Shown: piece after piece, positions 13,400 through 20,548 of the stretch
Layout of the letters: every line of letters begins with the position of its first letter
How positions within the stretch are numbered: the stretch's first letter is position 1
Source of the DNA: Minisyncoccota bacterium
Lineage (GTDB): Bacteria > Patescibacteriota > Minisyncoccia > Phycocordibacterales > PALSA-1337
Length of the DNA stretch: 64,000 bases
Direction of reading: 5' to 3'
Assembly (NCBI GenBank): GCA_028713005.1
Contig: JAQTPC010000001.1
Coordinates: 33,414-97,413, forward strand
Notes under the pieces: model-generated
Told to the model about the DNA's origin: nothing
Seen by the model: only the letters and a program-made list of their open reading frames with translations
Databases searched by the model: none
Translations under genes and position numbers: made by a program

Positions 13400-14209
13400 C
13401 CTTAAGTTATACACAACCCCCTTGCGCGCCAGAATATTAGTGCTAAGATTATATCTATGAACATCGTGATTACAAAGTTTACCTCTCCTTCAAACCTCGC
13501 GTCTAAGACGCAGGTTGTTGGAAGTCGGACTTTGTAACAAATTCTCCTCAATTGGTTACAACATCGGGCTCCCAACGAAAAGGGAGTCCGTTTTGCATAT
13601 CCACCCGCTTGAGCGGACTGGAACGAGTGCAAAAGCAGTTCATTTGAAAGCTCAAAAGACTATGAATACCGAGAATCACGCAACCAATGGTGTGCCTCTT
13701 GCCTTAACATCAACAATTGATTTGTTTGCAACGAGGCGGACACGCAGCAAATATGCTGCCAAAATGCAGGGTCGGATCGGCTGGTGGCACCCTCCCGGCA
13801 AAAAAGCGACAGCCTATTGGTGGTCCGAAAAGCTGGAGCGATGGAACTTGGTTCAAACCAATCCACGCAAAGATAAAGCAACTCGCTTGATGCGAACACC
13901 CCAAGTCAGTCCCGCCTCGTCTCACGTTGGCTGGGAAGCAGGTATCAAATCTCCCATTTTGCCCGGTGAATCTTCCGGCGATCCGGAATTTGAACATGGT
14001 AATGGTGATTAATTCAATTTGTAGACCAGATGTGTATGACGCTGTGTCACATCACTCTGATGTGCTGCCTACAGCATGTCTGGTCTCCACGATTTTGGGC
14101 ACCGATCGGCAAACGCCTAGATAAAGTTATCCTGAGAGAAACCTCTAGTGCGTCGCTCGGTTCAAGCTCATAAGCGCACGGTCTATACTGTGCGCTTTTT
14201 TATTTTTTG
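13400..14209 (+). ncRNA. candidate large structured ncRNA (unidentified); boundaries approximate
   Basis: About 800 bp with no credible ORF in any frame; the longest is a composition-poor 165 aa. GC is visibly higher than the flanks. Many extended hairpins are present, for example gggctccc/gggagtcc, agtccg/cggact, ttccgg/ccggaa, and a long stem around 14014-14088. It ends in a strong terminator. Confidence 0.3.
14175..14209 (+). terminator. intrinsic terminator
   Basis: gcgcac-N10-gtgcgc, then ttttttatttttt. Confidence 0.75.
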
Positions 14210-14282
14210 AGTCATCTACTTCTTCGGTTGACATGCATATATCAACGTAATAGAGTTGGATTAAAGAAAGGAGACTTGCACC

Positions 14283-14747
14283 ATGAAAACAACTGAAAGA
14301 ATACTCGTTCGGGTTATGCCCGAAGCAATGTCGCGTCTCGTGTGGATCATGCGTCAGTTGCTTTCAACTCACGCAAAAATACTTCACAAGCGCGTAGTGA
14401 ACCTCGACACTGACACAGTCAATGCACTTCATCCAACCGCAAACGGTCAGGTGAAGGCAGAGATTCTGCAGCGTCTCAAGGGTCAGCAGATCGGCCTGTT
14501 TCTTCTTGAAGGTGAAAATGTGGTTGAACACATCACACGACTGGTTGGAACAGATAATAAGCAGTATTTGTGGACGATAAACACATTGCAGGGTCAATTA
14601 CTCGTGGAGTTCTACCTCCGTATCAATCGCTCATACGCGGATAGCGTCTACCACTACCACTTCATCGAGTGTGTAACCGACCCTGACGAAATCAAGCGTC
14701 AATACGCTCTTCTGACAGATAAATCACTCTACTCAAAAACGTTTTGA
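14283..14747 (+). CDS. hypothetical protein (154 aa)
   Basis: Strong Shine-Dalgarno (aaaggag) 8 nt upstream; no recognisable domain. Confidence 0.5.
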   Translation: MKTTERILVRVMPEAMSRLVWIMRQLLSTHAKILHKRVVNLDTDTVNALHPTANGQVKAEILQRLKGQQIGLFLLEGENVVEHITRLVGTDNKQYLWTINTLQGQLLVEFYLRINRSYADSVYHYHFIECVTDPDEIKRQYALLTDKSLYSKTF

Positions 14748-14926: not shown

Positions 14927-17002
14927 ATGTCCGCCAAACCCCTCTTTCAACTCGCGACACCATATAAACCAGCAGGTGACCAACCAAAGGCTATTTCAGG
15001 GCTCGTAGAAGGGCTCAAGAAGGGTTTTACCAAGCAAACCTTGCTCGGAGTCACAGGCTCAGGTAAGACCTTTACCGCGGCTAATGTCATCACTCAGTTC
15101 AACAAGCCGACCCTTGTCATTGCTCATAATAAAACCCTTGCCGCACAGCTTGCCCAGGAGTATCGTGAATTTTTCCCGCACAATGCAGTGCACTATTTCG
15201 TCTCATACTATGACTACTATCAGCCAGAGGCATATATTCCATCGAGTGATACATACATCGAAAAAGAAGCCATGATCAATGAAGAGATCGAGCGTCTCCG
15301 TCACGCATCGACGCAAGCACTTCTTACGCGTAAGGATGTAATTATAGTTGCGTCAGTTTCTTGTATATACGGTTTGGGTAGTCCTGAAGAATATGAAAAG
15401 GTGAATCTCAAACTCAAAGTCGGCATGGAACTATCGCGCGCAGAGCTCATCCGCAAATTGATCGACATTCACTTTGAACGCACACTGGCTGATCTGAAGT
15501 CTGGTCAATTCCGCGCAACAGGCAATATGCTCGAAGTCATGCCCGTCAACGAAAAGACTATTTATCGTATCGAGTACGACACCAACGACAAAGGTGAGGC
15601 GGTCATCTCACTCATCACCGAGCTTGATCCCGTCAGTCGTTCCGTGCGTGCCAGTCATGAGGCTATCTTCATTTTCCCAGCAAAGCACTTCATCTCATCT
15701 GATGAGCAGAGTGCCAAAGCGTACAAGACCATCCAAGCTGAGCTCGTCGATAGACTCAAAGTGCTCGAAAAGGGAGGCAAGATGCTCGAAGCAGAACGTC
15801 TCAAGCGTCGCGTCAAGTATGATCTCTCTATGATCAAGGAGATCGGGTATACGAACGGCATTGAGAACTATTCACGTCACTTCAGTGGGCACATGCCCGG
15901 TGAAGCGCCTGATACACTCCTCGCATACTTTCCAAAAGACAAAGATGGCAATCCAGACTTCCTGACCATCATCGATGAGTCGCATGTCACCATCCCACAG
16001 TTGAACGGTATGTATGCCGGCGATGCCTCACGCAAAGAGACGCTGATCGAGCACGGTTTCCGTTTGCCGTCTGCCAAGGACAATAGACCGCTCAAATTCC
16101 CGGAGTTCCTCGAACGTGTGGGCCCCATGATCTATACCTCAGCGACGCCAGGTAAATATGAAGTAGCCGAATCACAAAATGTCGTCGAGCAAGTCATCCG
16201 TCCAACTGGCCTCATTGATCCGGTGGTTGATATCAAGCCAATCAGGGAAAATGCGTCGAGTGGCTACAAGGGTCAAATATTTGATTTCATTGAGGAAGCA
16301 GAGAAGACTATCAAGAGCGGTTTCCGTGTCATCGCCACCACTCTGACCAAAAAGATGGCTGAGGATCTGTCTGAATTCCTCAAGGAAAAGAAGATCAAAG
16401 CGGCATATCTCCACAGCGATATCAAAACCATTGAGCGCATCAATATCCTCACTGACTTCCGCAGAGGGAAGTACGATATCGTCGTGGGCGTCAACCTCCT
16501 CCGTGAAGGACTGGATCTCCCTGAAGTGTCCCTCATCGGCATCCTCGATGCTGACAAAGAAGGCTTCCTCCGCAGTGAGACCTCTCTCATCCAGACTATC
16601 GGCCGTGCGGCGCGCAACTCTGCTGGTCGCGTCATCCTCTATGCCGACACCATGACCGACTCCATGAAGAATGCCATCCGCGAAACTGATCGCCGTCGCG
16701 CCATCCAGGTCGCATACAATACCGAGCATGGCATCACCCCAACCACCATCATCAAGGCTATCCATGACATCACCGACCAGTTGCGCACTGAGCATGATAA
16801 GGCGGTGAATGCACTTGTGAAGATCGATGAGGAATTGGCGCGCACTGACCCCAAGAAGCTCTACCGCATGAAGGAGGAAGCTATGGCCGAGGCTGTGCAA
16901 GCGCTCGACTTTGAGACTGCGGCACTCATACGCGATGAGCTTTTCAAGTTGGAGGAAAAGATGGGTGTGCCGGGGAGGAAGGGTAATAAATTATATGAAT
17001 AA
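14927..17002 (+). CDS. uvrB: excinuclease ABC subunit B
   Basis: Walker A GVTGSGKTFT, the UvrB beta-hairpin region, helicase motifs, and a C-terminal UVR domain (ALDFETAALIRDELFKLEE). Confidence 0.92.
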   Translation: MSAKPLFQLATPYKPAGDQPKAISGLVEGLKKGFTKQTLLGVTGSGKTFTAANVITQFNKPTLVIAHNKTLAAQLAQEYREFFPHNAVHYFVSYYDYYQPEAYIPSSDTYIEKEAMINEEIERLRHASTQALLTRKDVIIVASVSCIYGLGSPEEYEKVNLKLKVGMELSRAELIRKLIDIHFERTLADLKSGQFRATGNMLEVMPVNEKTIYRIEYDTNDKGEAVISLITELDPVSRSVRASHEAIFIFPAKHFISSDEQSAKAYKTIQAELVDRLKVLEKGGKMLEAERLKRRVKYDLSMIKEIGYTNGIENYSRHFSGHMPGEAPDTLLAYFPKDKDGNPDFLTIIDESHVTIPQLNGMYAGDASRKETLIEHGFRLPSAKDNRPLKFPEFLERVGPMIYTSATPGKYEVAESQNVVEQVIRPTGLIDPVVDIKPIRENASSGYKGQIFDFIEEAEKTIKSGFRVIATTLTKKMAEDLSEFLKEKKIKAAYLHSDIKTIERINILTDFRRGKYDIVVGVNLLREGLDLPEVSLIGILDADKEGFLRSETSLIQTIGRAARNSAGRVILYADTMTDSMKNAIRETDRRRAIQVAYNTEHGITPTTIIKAIHDITDQLRTEHDKAVNALVKIDEELARTDPKKLYRMKEEAMAEAVQALDFETAALIRDELFKLEEKMGVPGRKGNKLYE

Positions 17003-18017
17003 ATTTGATGACATCAGTAAGTATATTTCTAAAAATCTCAACGAAAATACTTTGCAAGTAGCTGTGCGCGAAGGTATAAGCTTAGAGTTTAAAGAAAATT
17101 ACGATTGGTCAAATAAAGATGACTATGCGAAAACTATCGCATCATTCGCTAATAATCGCGGTGGTTACCTTATATTTGGAATTACAAACGCACCCAGAAT
17201 ACTGAAAGGTTTATCAAGTAATAATTTCGAGAATCAAGATGATGCTATTATTACTTCCTACTTGAACAGTGTATTTTCTCCTGAAATTAATTACGAAAAA
17301 TATGAAAAAATAGTAGTAGATAAAAGGATTGGGGTTATCTATGTTCATCAGTCACAGCAAAAACCAATTGTTGCAATTAAAAATGATAAAGGAATCAAGG
17401 AAGCAGAAATCTACTACAGATACAAAGCGAGAAGTGAGAAAATTAAATTTCCTGAGCTTAAAAGTATTTTCGATAATATACGCGAAAAAGAGAGAGATAA
17501 TTGGATGAATTTATTTGAAAAAATATCAAAAATTGGTCCAGAAAATGTGGGGGTTATGGATACGGTTAGAGGCACCTTAGAGGGAAAAGGCGGGTCACTT
17601 CTTATTGATAGTAAACTCGTTCCTAAGCTTAAATTTATTAAGGATGGTCATTTCAGTGAAAATGGAAAGATTGCCCTTAAGTTGATTGGTGACATCAAAC
17701 CTGTTTCTGTTGCAAGTTACGGTAAAATAGGGAGCGCATCCATAAGAATTACGGATGATCCAACAGCTTTTGCAATTAGTGAAGAAACTATTCTTAAACA
17801 GTACCCCTTAGATTATTTTGATTTGATTAAAGCGTTACGAACTAGATTTCCTAGCCTCAAAATTAACCCTGAATTCCATAAAATCAAGGATATATTAATT
17901 AAAAATCCAAAGTACTGCATAACACGCTATCTCGATCCAAATAAAAAGAAAGGTAGTCAAAAGTCATTTTATAGTAATTCAATTATTAAAGAGTTTGATA
18001 AACATTATAAAAAATGA
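16995..18017 (+). CDS. AlbA_2 (Schlafen-like 'divergent AAA' DNA-binding) domain protein
   Basis: N-terminal …ISLEFKENYDW…AKTIASFANNRGGYLIFGITNAPRILKG… matches the E.LEFK…AFAN..GG.i.fGv signature; the C-terminal 200 aa are unassigned. The start overlaps the uvrB stop by 8 nt, and the gene is much more AT-rich than uvrB. Confidence 0.6.
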   Translation: MNKFDDISKYISKNLNENTLQVAVREGISLEFKENYDWSNKDDYAKTIASFANNRGGYLIFGITNAPRILKGLSSNNFENQDDAIITSYLNSVFSPEINYEKYEKIVVDKRIGVIYVHQSQQKPIVAIKNDKGIKEAEIYYRYKARSEKIKFPELKSIFDNIREKERDNWMNLFEKISKIGPENVGVMDTVRGTLEGKGGSLLIDSKLVPKLKFIKDGHFSENGKIALKLIGDIKPVSVASYGKIGSASIRITDDPTAFAISEETILKQYPLDYFDLIKALRTRFPSLKINPEFHKIKDILIKNPKYCITRYLDPNKKKGSQKSFYSNSIIKEFDKHYKK

Positions 18018-18640
18018 ATCGAAAATACTACAGAAGTAAACGACAAAGCCCACTTGATACATTTCTTGACGAACTCTTTGATTTCATAGTTTTTATTTTT
18101 GTTACACTTTTTAGATACTGTTGGAAATTAATCAAAAATACTCGTACGACAAGACCAAATCTAAAATTGAACATAGAAATACCCTCTGTGCCAAATGTAA
18201 ATAATAGTTTAGCTGATGACAGTAAAGTAACTACTTCAGAATCTCGTTATATCTTAAAAGAAAGTTTGGTGACAAATGCTGAAAAGGAATTCTTGAAAGT
18301 TTTAGAGACTGTAGTTGGCAATAGTTATCGTATCGAATCACAGGTTCCACTATCTGGAATAGTTAAACCAATCGATTCAAGTGATCATTGGACTAACTAT
18401 CGTGATTTTAATCCGATTAAGTCAAAGTCGATTGATTTCGTCTTATATGACAAGGATTACAAACCATATTTGGCTATTGAACTGGATGATCGTTCACATT
18501 CAAGATGGGATAGAATTAAGAGAGACCAGATCGTAAACGAGATAATGAAGAGTGTGGGATTGCGCATCGTTCATATACCATTTTCCTATCGCTATAATCC
18601 TGAGAAATTAAAGAGTGAGATATTTATCGAGAATGCTTAG
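18014..18640 (+). CDS. membrane-anchored Vsr/DUF559/DUF2726-like (restriction-endonuclease-fold) protein
   Basis: N-terminal TM helix. The C-terminal …IDFVLYDKDYKPYLAIELDDRSHSRWDRIKRDQIVNEIMKSVGLRIVHIPF… matches the …DF.l….aIE.DG..H…..rD..r…L…G..v.R signature. A 4-nt ATGA overlap joins it to the previous gene. Confidence 0.5.
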   Translation: MNRKYYRSKRQSPLDTFLDELFDFIVFIFVTLFRYCWKLIKNTRTTRPNLKLNIEIPSVPNVNNSLADDSKVTTSESRYILKESLVTNAEKEFLKVLETVVGNSYRIESQVPLSGIVKPIDSSDHWTNYRDFNPIKSKSIDFVLYDKDYKPYLAIELDDRSHSRWDRIKRDQIVNEIMKSVGLRIVHIPFSYRYNPEKLKSEIFIENA

Positions 18641-18710
18641 TGATTTTTAATTTTTGAGATTAAAGTATAAGAGCTTGTAATTTTTATTAACAGATATATA
18701 GTAAGTAAAT

Positions 18711-19541
18711 ATGCAAACAATTTCTGCTCCACAATCTATAGACATGGTTCAATTTAGTAGAGATCTTTTTTCTCAAATTGCAACAGTGAATGCTACATAC
18801 CTAGCAATTTCAGTATCTATAATACTTGGTTCTGGTATAGGTATTACTATCTTAATGTATTTTTTAAATTATAAGCCGACTAAAGAGAACTTAGACAAAC
18901 AGGCAGCAGATATTGATTTGATAAAGAAAGAGACTGAATTGAAGGTTGGGGAGTTGAGAACTTCACAGTTAGAAGTATCAAATTCTATGCAATATCTTAA
19001 GGACGAGAACAATAGAATACTTGAAAATTTAAAGATTGTCAGTGAAGAGGAAGTCACAACAATTAAGAAACTCTTTGAAGAAAAACAAAAAGATTTTGAT
19101 ACTAAAATAAAGGCCGAGATGGAACTGCGAATTAATGAGATTGGCGTAAAAATGTCAGCTATTGAAAAAACGGCAATTGAAAAAGCAAAAATTTTGGAGG
19201 AAAAAAATAGAGCTCTTGATATTAGCTCGACGTGGGATATGCATTATGTCTGGCAGGTACAAAAAATTCCAGTGAATACTTTGTCATCGCTTGTTACTAC
19301 TTTAGAAAAAACGATTGAGTCACTAAAAGTTTCTAATTATAATGAAGCCTTTATTGGTCTTTGTCTGAAGGAATTACCTAAAACAATTGATGAAGTAACT
19401 AATGACCATCCAAAAATATTTACAAATCTGCCAAATACTATTGAAAGACTTGAAATTTGTCTTACATTAATCAAAGGAAGCGAAGTCGAGAAGGGTGTTG
19501 TAACAGCCAAGATTCAATTACTACGGAATGCTTTAAGTTAA
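18711..19541 (+). CDS. TM + coiled-coil protein (276 aa), function unknown
   Basis: One N-terminal TM helix followed by long heptad-rich sequence. AT-rich like the two preceding genes. Confidence 0.45.
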
Positions 19542-19585
19542 GCAAATACGCTATAATAAGTCCATTAATCACCTCACAAACCCCC

Positions 19586-20344
19586 ATGCCAATCACAGCC
19601 ATCATCATAGTCCTCGTCATCTTGCTCGCTATGTCACTCCGCGTCGTCAAAGAGTATGACCGTGGCGTTATCTTCTTCCTGGGCAAATGTACTGGCGTCA
19701 GAGGTCCTGGACTCATCATCCTCATTCCTATCTTGGAAAAGATGACCAAGGTCACTCTCCGTACGATCACCATGAATATCCCTTCACAGAAGATCATCAC
19801 CAAAGATAACGTCTCAATCGACATTGCGGCAGTGGCGTACTATCACATCGCTGATGCAAAGAAATCAGTTCTAGCCATCGAGAACGTCTATGACGCAGTC
19901 AACCAGATCAGTCAGACGACCGTCCGAAACATTGTGGGCAAATTCTCGCTTGATCAGCTCCTCTCACAAACGGGCGATATCAATGTCCAGATCAAGGATG
20001 TCATCGACGCACATACGGAGCCGTGGGGCGCAGAGGTGACGGCTGTGGAGATCAAAGACATCGTTCTCCCCGACAACATGCAACGCGCTATGGCCAAGGA
20101 AGCCGAAGCAGAACGTGAGCGCCGTGCAAAGATAGTGGCAGCCGAAGGCGAATTCCAAGCATCCGTCAAACTCGGTGAAGCTGCTGATATCATCGCTATG
20201 CACCCTGTCGCTCTCCAGTTGCGCACCCTCCAGACCATGTCAGAGATCGCCACTGAAAAGAATTCAACGATCATTTTCCCCGCACAATTCATGACGACCG
20301 TTCAGGAAGCTATTGCCACGATAAAAGGGGATTCAAAGAAGTAA
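19586..20344 (+). CDS. SPFH/band-7 (stomatin/prohibitin-like) membrane protein
   Basis: N-terminal TM, then …[15 protein letters not shown]… and SPFH-domain motifs, with a charged EA-rich C-terminal helix. The ORF-track start at 19457 overlaps the previous gene and crosses a sharp GC shift, so I preferred 19586. Confidence 0.8.
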
Positions 20345-20358
20345 ATTTATTAAAAAGA

Positions 20359-20390: not shown

Positions 20391-20548
20391 ACAAAAGTGT
20401 ATTTTACGTTATATCATAATATTGAACAGTATGGGCAACCATATTGAAACCGCTAGTGAGGCTGTCTCGGCCTTTCACCATGGACTCTCGAAACAATTTG
20501 AGAGAATGGTACATACAGTTGGTGGTTATTTCCTGAAAGGAGATCAAA

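Follow-up and report, generated by a model that had tools for sequence, protein, structure and literature searches.

The 64,000-nt stretch of Minisyncoccota DNA analysed here, hereafter called the window, contains an AT-rich island of three genes located between uvrB and a gene for an SPFH/Band_7 protein. The genes encode a putative single-protein prokaryotic Schlafen (pSlfn; gene 1), a putative membrane-anchored nuclease with a DUF2726 domain (gene 2), and an orphan protein (gene 3), and their coordinates are listed in Table 1. We suggest that the segment 16995-19548 is probably the cargo of a strain-variable hotspot, which extends from the 3' end of uvrB to the SPFH gene in a Paceibacteria genome of the candidate phyla radiation (CPR), and that the three genes are distributed independently of each other rather than being parts of one system. 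The guanine plus cytosine (GC) content is 0.319 at positions 16995-19545, as compared to a mean of 0.427 (standard deviation 0.019, minimum 0.385) for the other 2.55-kb segments of the 64 kb (z = -5.7). It falls from 0.53 to 0.30 at about position 16990 and rises from 0.35 to 0.49 at about position 19548, in both cases within a single bin of 100 nt. Genes 1, 2, and 3 have the lowest GC contents of the 62 open reading frames (ORFs) in the window, and the GC content at their third codon positions is 0.25-0.29, versus 0.58 in uvrB and 0.55 in the SPFH gene. An earlier interpretation of this DNA, made from the letters alone (the sequence-only reading), had described an AT-rich island with sharp edges, and both this description and its gene coordinates, including the overlap of 8 nt with uvrB and the ATGA overlap between genes 1 and 2, were reproduced here.

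Table 1. Coordinates of the island, its flanking genes, and selected features, given as positions in the window.
Feature	Position	Strand	Basis or remark
uvrB, conserved left flank	14927-17002	+	Pfam UvrB, UvrB_inter, Helicase_C, ResIII; identity to sister loci
Left junction of the island	16982-16994	.	Alignment of three uvrB 3' ends, blastn end points, 100-nt GC bins
Gene 1, putative pSlfn, 340 aa	16995-18017	+	ATG at 16995, 8 nt inside uvrB
Ex4ExK motif codons of gene 1 (E26-G-I-S-L-E31-F-K33)	17070-17093	+	E26, E31, and K33 identical in homologues
C-terminal module of gene 1, residues ~220-340	17652-18014	+	Partial PDC-S19 match, hhalign to DUF3644 family
Gene 2, putative membrane-anchored DUF2726 protein, 208 aa	18014-18640	+	ATGA overlap with gene 1
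Hydrophobic anchor helix of gene 2, residues ~14-44	18053-18145	+	AlphaFold2 helix 13-44, hydropathy
Spacer before gene 3, 70 nt	18641-18710	+	Promoter-like site 18675-18702 from consensus scan; a hint only
Gene 3, orphan protein, 276 aa	18711-19541	+	Cassette slot 3' of gene 2
Right junction of the island	19542-19548	.	Homology to sister locus L085 resumes at 19549; GC bins
SPFH/Band_7 gene, right flank, outside the island	19587-20344	+	PF01145, E 1.9e-38; likely start ATG 19587

The borders of the island were defined by comparison with sister genomes, which were reached via close homologues of gene 2 and encode UvrB proteins that are 95% identical to that of the window. The uvrB genes of two of these loci, L083 and L085, are 86-87% identical to that of the window at the nucleotide level. 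According to DNA alignment and blastn, this homology ends at window positions 16982-16984, and at 16982-16990 when all sister genomes are considered; the conserved end of uvrB reads GGTGTGCCGGGGAGGAAGG. Since the homology ends before the uvrB stop codon, the final codons of the gene and the stop codon itself come from the island. On the other side, homology to L085 starts again at position 19549 with GCTATAAT, 5' of the SPFH gene, and the nucleotide identity is 87.7% across positions 19549-20354. Between these borders, gene 2 is 87.8% identical to its counterpart in L083 over exactly positions 18017-18625, which is about the same divergence as for uvrB. The foreign composition and the sharp homology borders support the view, already expressed in the sequence-only reading, that the segment represents acquired cargo. 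An integrative mobile element with its own integrase was not supported, in line with the previous failure to recognise an integrase, as the island contains no recombinase-sized ORF besides genes 1-3 and there are no direct repeats at its borders; a repeat of the uvrB 3' end, as expected for att-type sites, was not found within positions 16500-20000. Of the 42 Pfam families in the remainder of the window, 25 were listed, and none of these is a recombinase family. In scans for promoters and terminators, the number of sites, including the one at 18675-18702, was not above the shuffled expectation.

The region between uvrB and the SPFH gene is a hotspot with two cassette slots, placed on either side of the conserved resident gene 2. 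While the window contains the pSlfn gene in the 5' slot and gene 3 in the 3' slot, L085 contains a gene for a 306-aa protein similar to TIR and nucleoside deoxyribosyltransferase (NDT) proteins (PADLOC TIR effector, E 7.6e-9) in the 5' slot, and PDC-S06, a 768-aa AAA_13 ATPase (PADLOC E 2.2e-69), in the 3' slot. In L083 and L082, gene 2 is preceded by a gene for a protein of 174 aa, a 94-nt duplicate of the uvrB 3' end, a DnaJ-domain gene, and a DUF3267 zincin-like gene, and is followed by a DRT2 reverse transcriptase gene in convergent orientation (PADLOC Drt2, E 3.8e-98). In L258, a zincin-like gene occupies the 5' slot, and a pair of genes for proteins of 248 and 179 aa substitutes for the DRT2 cassette precisely from the 3' end of gene 2. 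The cargo is AT-rich in all variants (GC 0.29-0.39), and no similarity was detected by blastp among the alternative 5'-slot proteins, namely gene 1, the 306-aa protein of L085, and a 300-aa protein of L083. Because the sister genomes hold DRT2, PDC-S06, and a TIR/NDT-like protein at the same position between uvrB and the SPFH gene, a defence-related role of the locus is supported. Thus, of the defence module proposed in the sequence-only reading, the assignment to defence stands for the locus, while the single functional pair is not supported. A conserved housekeeping neighbourhood of uvrB, which had been considered previously for the pair, also seems unlikely, since genes 1 and 3 are replaced in the sister genomes.

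Two of the sister loci show additional rearrangements. L083 has two copies of the final ~94 nt of uvrB (L083:2698-2792 and L083:3411-3504), 87% identical to window positions 16886-16979, and these copies flank an insert of ~615 bp that codes for the 174-aa protein, which has a signal-like N-terminus. There is no integrase nearby, and the duplication resembles a trace left by an insertion event in which the uvrB 3' end was either targeted or copied. L082 carries the DRT2-type reverse transcriptase gene after gene 2 (L082:1290-2531 on the reverse strand; L082:2952-4061) and lacks the SPFH gene at the locus, with homology to the window restarting only at position 20399. The SPFH gene itself is therefore dispensable at this site.

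Gene 1 belongs to a family for which we detected 364 homologues of ~345 aa. Residues 26-150 match SLFN_AlbA_2 (PF04326) with an E-value of 1.6e-19 and 71 bits (cut-off 25.3), so that the AlbA_2 assignment made from the sequence was upheld by hidden Markov model (HMM) comparison. The N-terminal Slfn/AlbA_2 domain is followed by an accessory region of ~190 aa, well above 40 aa in length, which comprises a connecting helix, a beta region of low model confidence, and a C-terminal module that is conserved. The family profile matches SLFN8/5/11/14 and the CRISPR-associated Schlafen CbCash in the PDB, and both the significant PF04326 domain and the fold are those of a Schlafen protein. The residues E26, E31, and K33 are invariant in 118/118 aligned homologues, and Ex4(E/D)xK is the catalytic motif of the Schlafen tRNases (PMC13056530). 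Residue 65, which aligns with the third carboxylate of the eukaryotic Schlafens (the second D of GVDD), is an asparagine in gene 1. The source databases label the protein as "ATP-binding protein" or "putative DNA-binding domain". Bacterial Schlafens have been described as phage-activated tRNases fused to sensor domains, with the Slfn domain serving as the effector (PMC13056530). Schlafen-mediated defence and tRNase activity in bacteria have also been published in PMC13462974, and an E. lactis Schlafen with an unannotated C-terminus provides defence in Enterococcus (PMC13552941). Judged by its sequence features, gene 1 is a pSlfn, a recently described class of phage-defence proteins. The sequence-only reading had taken AlbA_2 to be a DNA-sensing part, but because the Ex4ExK motif is invariant and the domain is the effector in published bacterial Schlafens, it is more likely an RNase effector.

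The C-terminal module of gene 1 connects the protein to another family of putative RNases. Residues 263-340 were modelled confidently by AlphaFold2 (AF2) with a predicted local distance difference test (pLDDT) score of ~90 and the order H-H-H-b-b-H. The PADLOC profile PDC-S19 matches residues 246-340 only (E 2.4e-27), which correspond to profile positions 231-327 of 330. A full-length PDC-S19 was ruled out, as the match is confined to the C-terminus and the N-terminal halves are unaligned in hhalign. When 1.84 billion representative proteins were searched by phmmer with residues 176-340, 680 matches were obtained. Among the best 148 of these, 67 are at least 270 aa long, of which 29 have a Slfn N-terminus and 38 do not. 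The latter 38 represent a single family of ~330 aa with an invariant R124-x4-H129 motif, which is named "DUF3644 domain-containing protein" at NCBI and for which no relatives were found by sequence in the PDB. Comparison of the gene-1 family to the DUF3644 family by hhalign aligned the C-terminal 124 columns only, with a probability of 100 and an E-value of 1e-39. The DUF3644/EC042_2821 proteins are a HEPN RNase family with fusions to winged helix-turn-helix domains and are present in restriction-modification (R-M) operons (PMC3710099). Based on the profile coordinates, the NCBI names, and the R-x4-H motif, PDC-S19 is apparently this same family. The module of ~120 aa thus appears to be carried by either a Schlafen or a HEPN RNase, in what would be a swap of RNase effectors. 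Since two unrelated RNase folds are attached to one module, we infer a regulatory or sensing function for the module in gene 1.

In a census of 80 genomes that span many phyla, the gene-1 family had no conserved neighbour, and none of its 135 immediate neighbours is a DUF2726 protein. The commonest neighbours are N6_Mtase (8), Methylase_S (7), and HSDR_N (6), along with other methylases, resolvases, and integrases. Relatives with 35-43% identity are located on the same strand inside type I R-M operons (L037, L041, L054, L080, L010, L061, and others), in the order M-Slfn-S-R or M-S-Slfn-R, while the close CPR relatives are located next to Ser/Tyr recombinases and ParB-methylases. Members of the family are usually lower in GC than their surroundings. 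A location in defence islands or on mobile elements is therefore seen both for the gene-1 family and for the sister cargo of this hotspot. The possibility that this copy of gene 1 is a PrrC-like RNase that guards a type I R-M system was rejected, as there is no PADLOC match at E 1e-10 elsewhere in the 64 kb and no R-M family among the 25 of 42 Pfam families listed. In a high-GC metagenome-assembled genome labelled Alphaproteobacteria (L021:3094-7017), a gene-1 homologue with 42% identity is placed 18 nt 3' of uvrB and has a GC content of 0.52, as compared to 0.63 around it. About 0.08 such cases are expected among 80 loci, and the adjacency to uvrB could be due to chance or to a recurrent insertion site.

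For gene 2, residues 83-203 match DUF2726 (PF10881) with an E-value of 2.3e-27 and 95.7 bits (cut-off 24.7). A match to REase_MTES_1575 was below its cut-off, and the Pfam search gave no match to PF04480/DUF559. Of the transmembrane (TM) protein with a Vsr/DUF559/DUF2726-like nuclease domain envisaged in the sequence-only reading, the anchor, the DUF2726 domain, and the restriction endonuclease (REase)-like fold were recovered, but not DUF559. The protein contains the pattern IDF...IELDD..H...R..RD, and the residues E90, Q110, D141, E156, D158, H162, R167, R170, and D171 are invariant in 32 homologues. The overall pLDDT of the AF2 model is 83, with values of mostly 87-97 for residues 81-200 and a dip to 77 at residues 121-130. 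The nuclease domain has the order a-b-b-b-a-b in this model, as in the restriction-endonuclease-like fold, and Foldseek gave modest matches (E 1e-3 to 3e-2) to BstEII, TnsA, and BsaXI. By sequence, no relatives were found in the PDB. DUF2726 has been grouped with Vsr and DUF559 in the PD-(D/E)xK superfamily (PMC3424549), and its fusions to AbiJ N-terminal domains have led to its description as a putative defence effector (PMC3424549, PMC3710099). A function or activity determined by experiment was not found for any DUF2726 protein in the searchable literature. From sequence and model together, gene 2 is a putative membrane-anchored DUF2726 (Vsr-like PD-(D/E)xK) nuclease and the conserved resident of the hotspot, and we prefer to read it as a cytoplasmic, membrane-tethered DNase.

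The family of gene 2 is found mainly in CPR genomes, and its members consist of a basic N-terminus, a single hydrophobic helix, a linker, and the DUF2726 domain. The linker is variable, has a mean length of ~53 aa, and is rich in K, E, N, S, and T. Outside of this hotspot, family members are located alone among housekeeping genes in the CPR genomes L087, L250, and L252, and beside a serine recombinase gene and a Rep gene in L251. In addition, many IMG/VR contigs of ~10-13 kb that are classed as viral (L171-L212) contain a DUF2726 gene with 35-40% identity to residues ~54-180 of gene 2; these contigs could be satellites or small integrated elements.

Gene 3 gave no match beyond noise in Pfam, PADLOC, NCBIfam, or PHROGs. 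The protein has a hydrophobic segment at residues 28-53, followed by ~110 charged residues that are poor in Pro and Gly. It had previously been read as a TM protein with a long coiled coil. The anchor and the charged helical region agree with this, while a crude heptad check, made with no dedicated coiled-coil predictor, was positive for residues 56-110 only. There are only five homologues, with identities of 54-60%, and these are found in unrelated contexts, some next to genes for nucleoside deoxyribosyltransferase, His-phosphatase, and MmeI-like methylase and others next to an M23 peptidase gene. None of the five has gene 1, gene 2, or an SPFH gene nearby. A partnership with the SPFH protein, which had also been proposed, was rejected on the grounds that homology to L085 restarts only past gene 3, at position 19549, and that the homologues never adjoin an SPFH gene. 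As the same slot holds DRT2 or PDC-S06 in sister strains, we infer a defence-related role of gene 3 from its location only. Genes 2 and 3 are best described as uncharacterised solitary genes in a defence hotspot, with putative functions.

The sequence-only reading had joined genes 1 and 2, perhaps together with gene 3, into one acquired defence or abortive-infection system, in which AlbA_2 would sense foreign nucleic acid and DUF2726 would execute the response. The common strand, the ATGA overlap, and the uniform composition of the island agree with such a system, and both domains are known from defence contexts. However, HMM searches for the pair revealed no credible DUF2726 gene in 83 gene-1 loci (786 kb), the lone, marginal match (E 0.0013) being a 54-aa frame inside the Schlafen gene, and a Slfn-domain gene in only one of 172 DUF2726 loci (1.22 Mb), where it is parted from the DUF2726 gene by an unrelated gene. 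This sole locus with both domains (L136:725-3662) encodes a Slfn protein of 458 aa, a beta-rich protein of 207 aa with a signal peptide, and a TM-DUF2726 protein that ends in a topoisomerase-type zinc ribbon. Likewise, no matches were obtained by tblastn with genes 2 and 3 against 80 gene-1 loci or with genes 1 and 3 against 168 DUF2726 loci. The close relatives retain gene 2 together with other 5' genes, the five gene-3 homologues accompany neither gene 1 nor gene 2, and the catalytic Ex4ExK motif of AlbA_2 suits an effector and not a sensor (PMC13056530). Given that the two genes do not co-occur in operons and that gene 1 is swapped in the sister genomes, an obligate system of AlbA_2 plus nuclease, conserved as a pair across genomes, is not supported, and a single three- or two-gene system seems rather improbable. 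The finding should accordingly not be treated as a new two-gene sensor-nuclease system.

Another way to connect the genes is to consider gene 2 as a shared effector, or a cassette-exchange nuclease, that serves the adjacent cassettes of an integron-like defence platform. All four locus variants keep gene 2 while both slots change, the break points are located at the ends of gene 2, and gene 2 has diverged as much as uvrB at the nucleotide level. Moreover, in three variants, gene 2 is directly adjoined on the same strand by a gene for 300-340 aa, different in each case, at a spacing of -4 to +27 nt. On the other hand, TM-DUF2726 relatives occur alone among housekeeping genes in other CPR genomes, the 5' partners bring effector-type domains of their own (Slfn, TIR/NDT-like, zincin-like), DRT2 works as a single gene, and plain homologous recombination would also yield break points at the edges of conserved genes. 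We consider such a platform very unlikely, and the bolder combination, in which gene 2 would be the functional core of a two-slot platform at the CPR uvrB 3' end, either as a shared effector or partner or as an exchange nuclease, and the 120-aa module a portable infection-sensing switch for RNase effectors, is a long shot. Alternatively, the island may have no role in defence: gene 1 could be a regulator with AlbA_2 and a winged-helix-type nucleic-acid-binding part, gene 2 a nuclease at the surface or in the membrane that serves DNA uptake or nucleotide scavenging, on which CPR bacteria depend, and the low GC content a trace of old horizontal acquisition. The database names of gene 1, the H-H-H-b-b order of its C-terminus, the TM-DUF2726 genes among housekeeping genes in several CPR genomes, and the variable linker and ambiguous topology of gene 2 are all compatible with this, and 30% of the pSlfn genes are located away from defence genes (PMC13056530). 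Nevertheless, we find it unlikely, given the DRT2, PDC-S06, and TIR-like genes in the same slots of sister strains, the R-M systems and recombinases that make up most of the neighbours of the gene-1 family, the invariant Ex4ExK motif, and a turnover among genomes with 95% identical UvrB proteins that is too fast for housekeeping genes.

The hotspot with three independent cargo genes therefore remains our favoured explanation, but several points weigh against it. The ATGA overlap means that genes 1 and 2 are surely co-transcribed, and some functional coupling between them is possible; the different genes for 300-340 aa that abut gene 2 in three variants would also fit with gene 2 as a component shared by its neighbours. 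Of 120 homologues of gene 1, 73 have D and 46 have N at position 65, and it is uncertain whether gene 1 is catalytically competent. In E. coli, defence was obtained with only two of seven bacterial Schlafens tested (PMC13056530). The C-terminal module of the gene-1 family is conserved to about the same degree (0.66) as the nuclease domain (0.73), which is unlike pSlfn5, for which a fast-evolving sensor has been reported. For gene 2, there are K/R residues on both sides of the anchor, and the topology predicted from the positive-inside rule is ambiguous according to hydropathy and charge counts in 71 homologues. If the nuclease domain were to face outward, DNA scavenging or uptake would be likelier than defence.

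Under the favoured explanation, the N-terminal domain of gene 1 would be a latent RNase, acting most likely on tRNA, which is held off by the C-terminal part until an infection cue is received. Once activated, it would shut down translation, and phage growth would be aborted or slowed. Gene 2 would act alone and cut DNA at the membrane. The cassettes may be exchanged by homologous recombination, for which uvrB, gene 2, and the SPFH side would provide the arms, and this would account for cassette borders that fall exactly at the two ends of gene 2.

The rest of the window contains housekeeping genes, such as those for Hsp70, aminoacyl-tRNA synthetases, transketolase, and GAPDH, and no PADLOC match at E 1e-10. 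The 64 kb contain neither a tRNA gene nor a match to an Rfam family that reaches the gathering score. Upstream of a 154-aa ORF (14283-14747), a segment of 139 nt (14069-14207) is 87% identical to intergenic positions 1548-1685 of L085, while the DNA around it is not detectably conserved. The segment has no Rfam match, and the region 13400-14280 is without a convincing ORF.

The locus represents a candidate defence hotspot in the CPR bacteria, for which there is little experimental knowledge of phage defence. The borders of the site, located at the uvrB 3' end, are defined to the base, and its documented cargo includes a putative pSlfn, a TIR-like protein, PDC-S06, and DRT2, as well as several uncharacterised genes. 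Among these, gene 3 and the 248- and 179-aa pair become defence candidates by location alone. Two aspects go beyond published work, namely the arrangement of two slots around gene 2 and the module that Schlafen and HEPN RNases have in common, and the latter points to the module as the regulatory part of these proteins.

In comparison with known systems, gene 1 resembles the pSlfn proteins RorSlfn5 and EcoSlfn7 (Perez Taboada et al., Nat Microbiol 2026, PMC13056530) in being a single protein with an N-terminal Slfn/AlbA_2 domain, an Ex4(E/D)xK motif, and a non-catalytic accessory region, and both pSlfn and the gene-1 family are found in defence islands and on mobile elements. It also shares the N-terminal Slfn domain with the E. 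lactis Schlafen, the C-terminus of which is without a known domain (PMC13552941). However, the accessory region of gene 1 differs from the Ig-like, DUF262, and HisKinase regions of the tested pSlfn proteins and from Csx15, the Cash sensor, and gene 1 further differs from pSlfn in its CPR host and in N65 at the position of the eukaryotic third carboxylate. The PADLOC candidate PDC-S19, apparently the DUF3644 family (Anantharaman et al. 2013, PMC3710099), has the same C-terminal module of ~120 aa, a similar length (330-345 aa), a single-gene organisation, and an association with R-M operons, but it has an N-terminal HEPN domain with R-x4-H in place of the Schlafen domain with Ex4ExK. The anticodon nucleases PrrC and RloC are embedded in type I R-M loci, and the gene-1 relatives with 35-43% identity occupy the position of prrC, on the same strand inside hsdM-hsdS-hsdR operons. 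Both groups are putative latent RNases, although the PrrC fold consists of an ABC-ATPase and HEPN, unlike gene 1. Gene 2 agrees with the Vsr/DUF559/DUF2726 branch of the PD-(D/E)xK proteins (Steczkiewicz et al. 2012, PMC3424549) in its PF10881 domain, the IELDD..H pattern, and the predicted REase-like fold. It differs from this branch in the N-terminal membrane anchor and linker, and the short anchored form is mainly found in CPR genomes.

Defence hotspots that are flanked by core genes and lack mobility genes of their own have been reported in Pseudomonas and E. coli. The locus described here has the same fixed flanks, sharp borders, foreign composition, varying defence cargo, and lack of an integrase. 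It differs from these hotspots in being located at the uvrB 3' end in a CPR lineage and in containing an internal conserved gene, gene 2, which splits the cargo into two slots.

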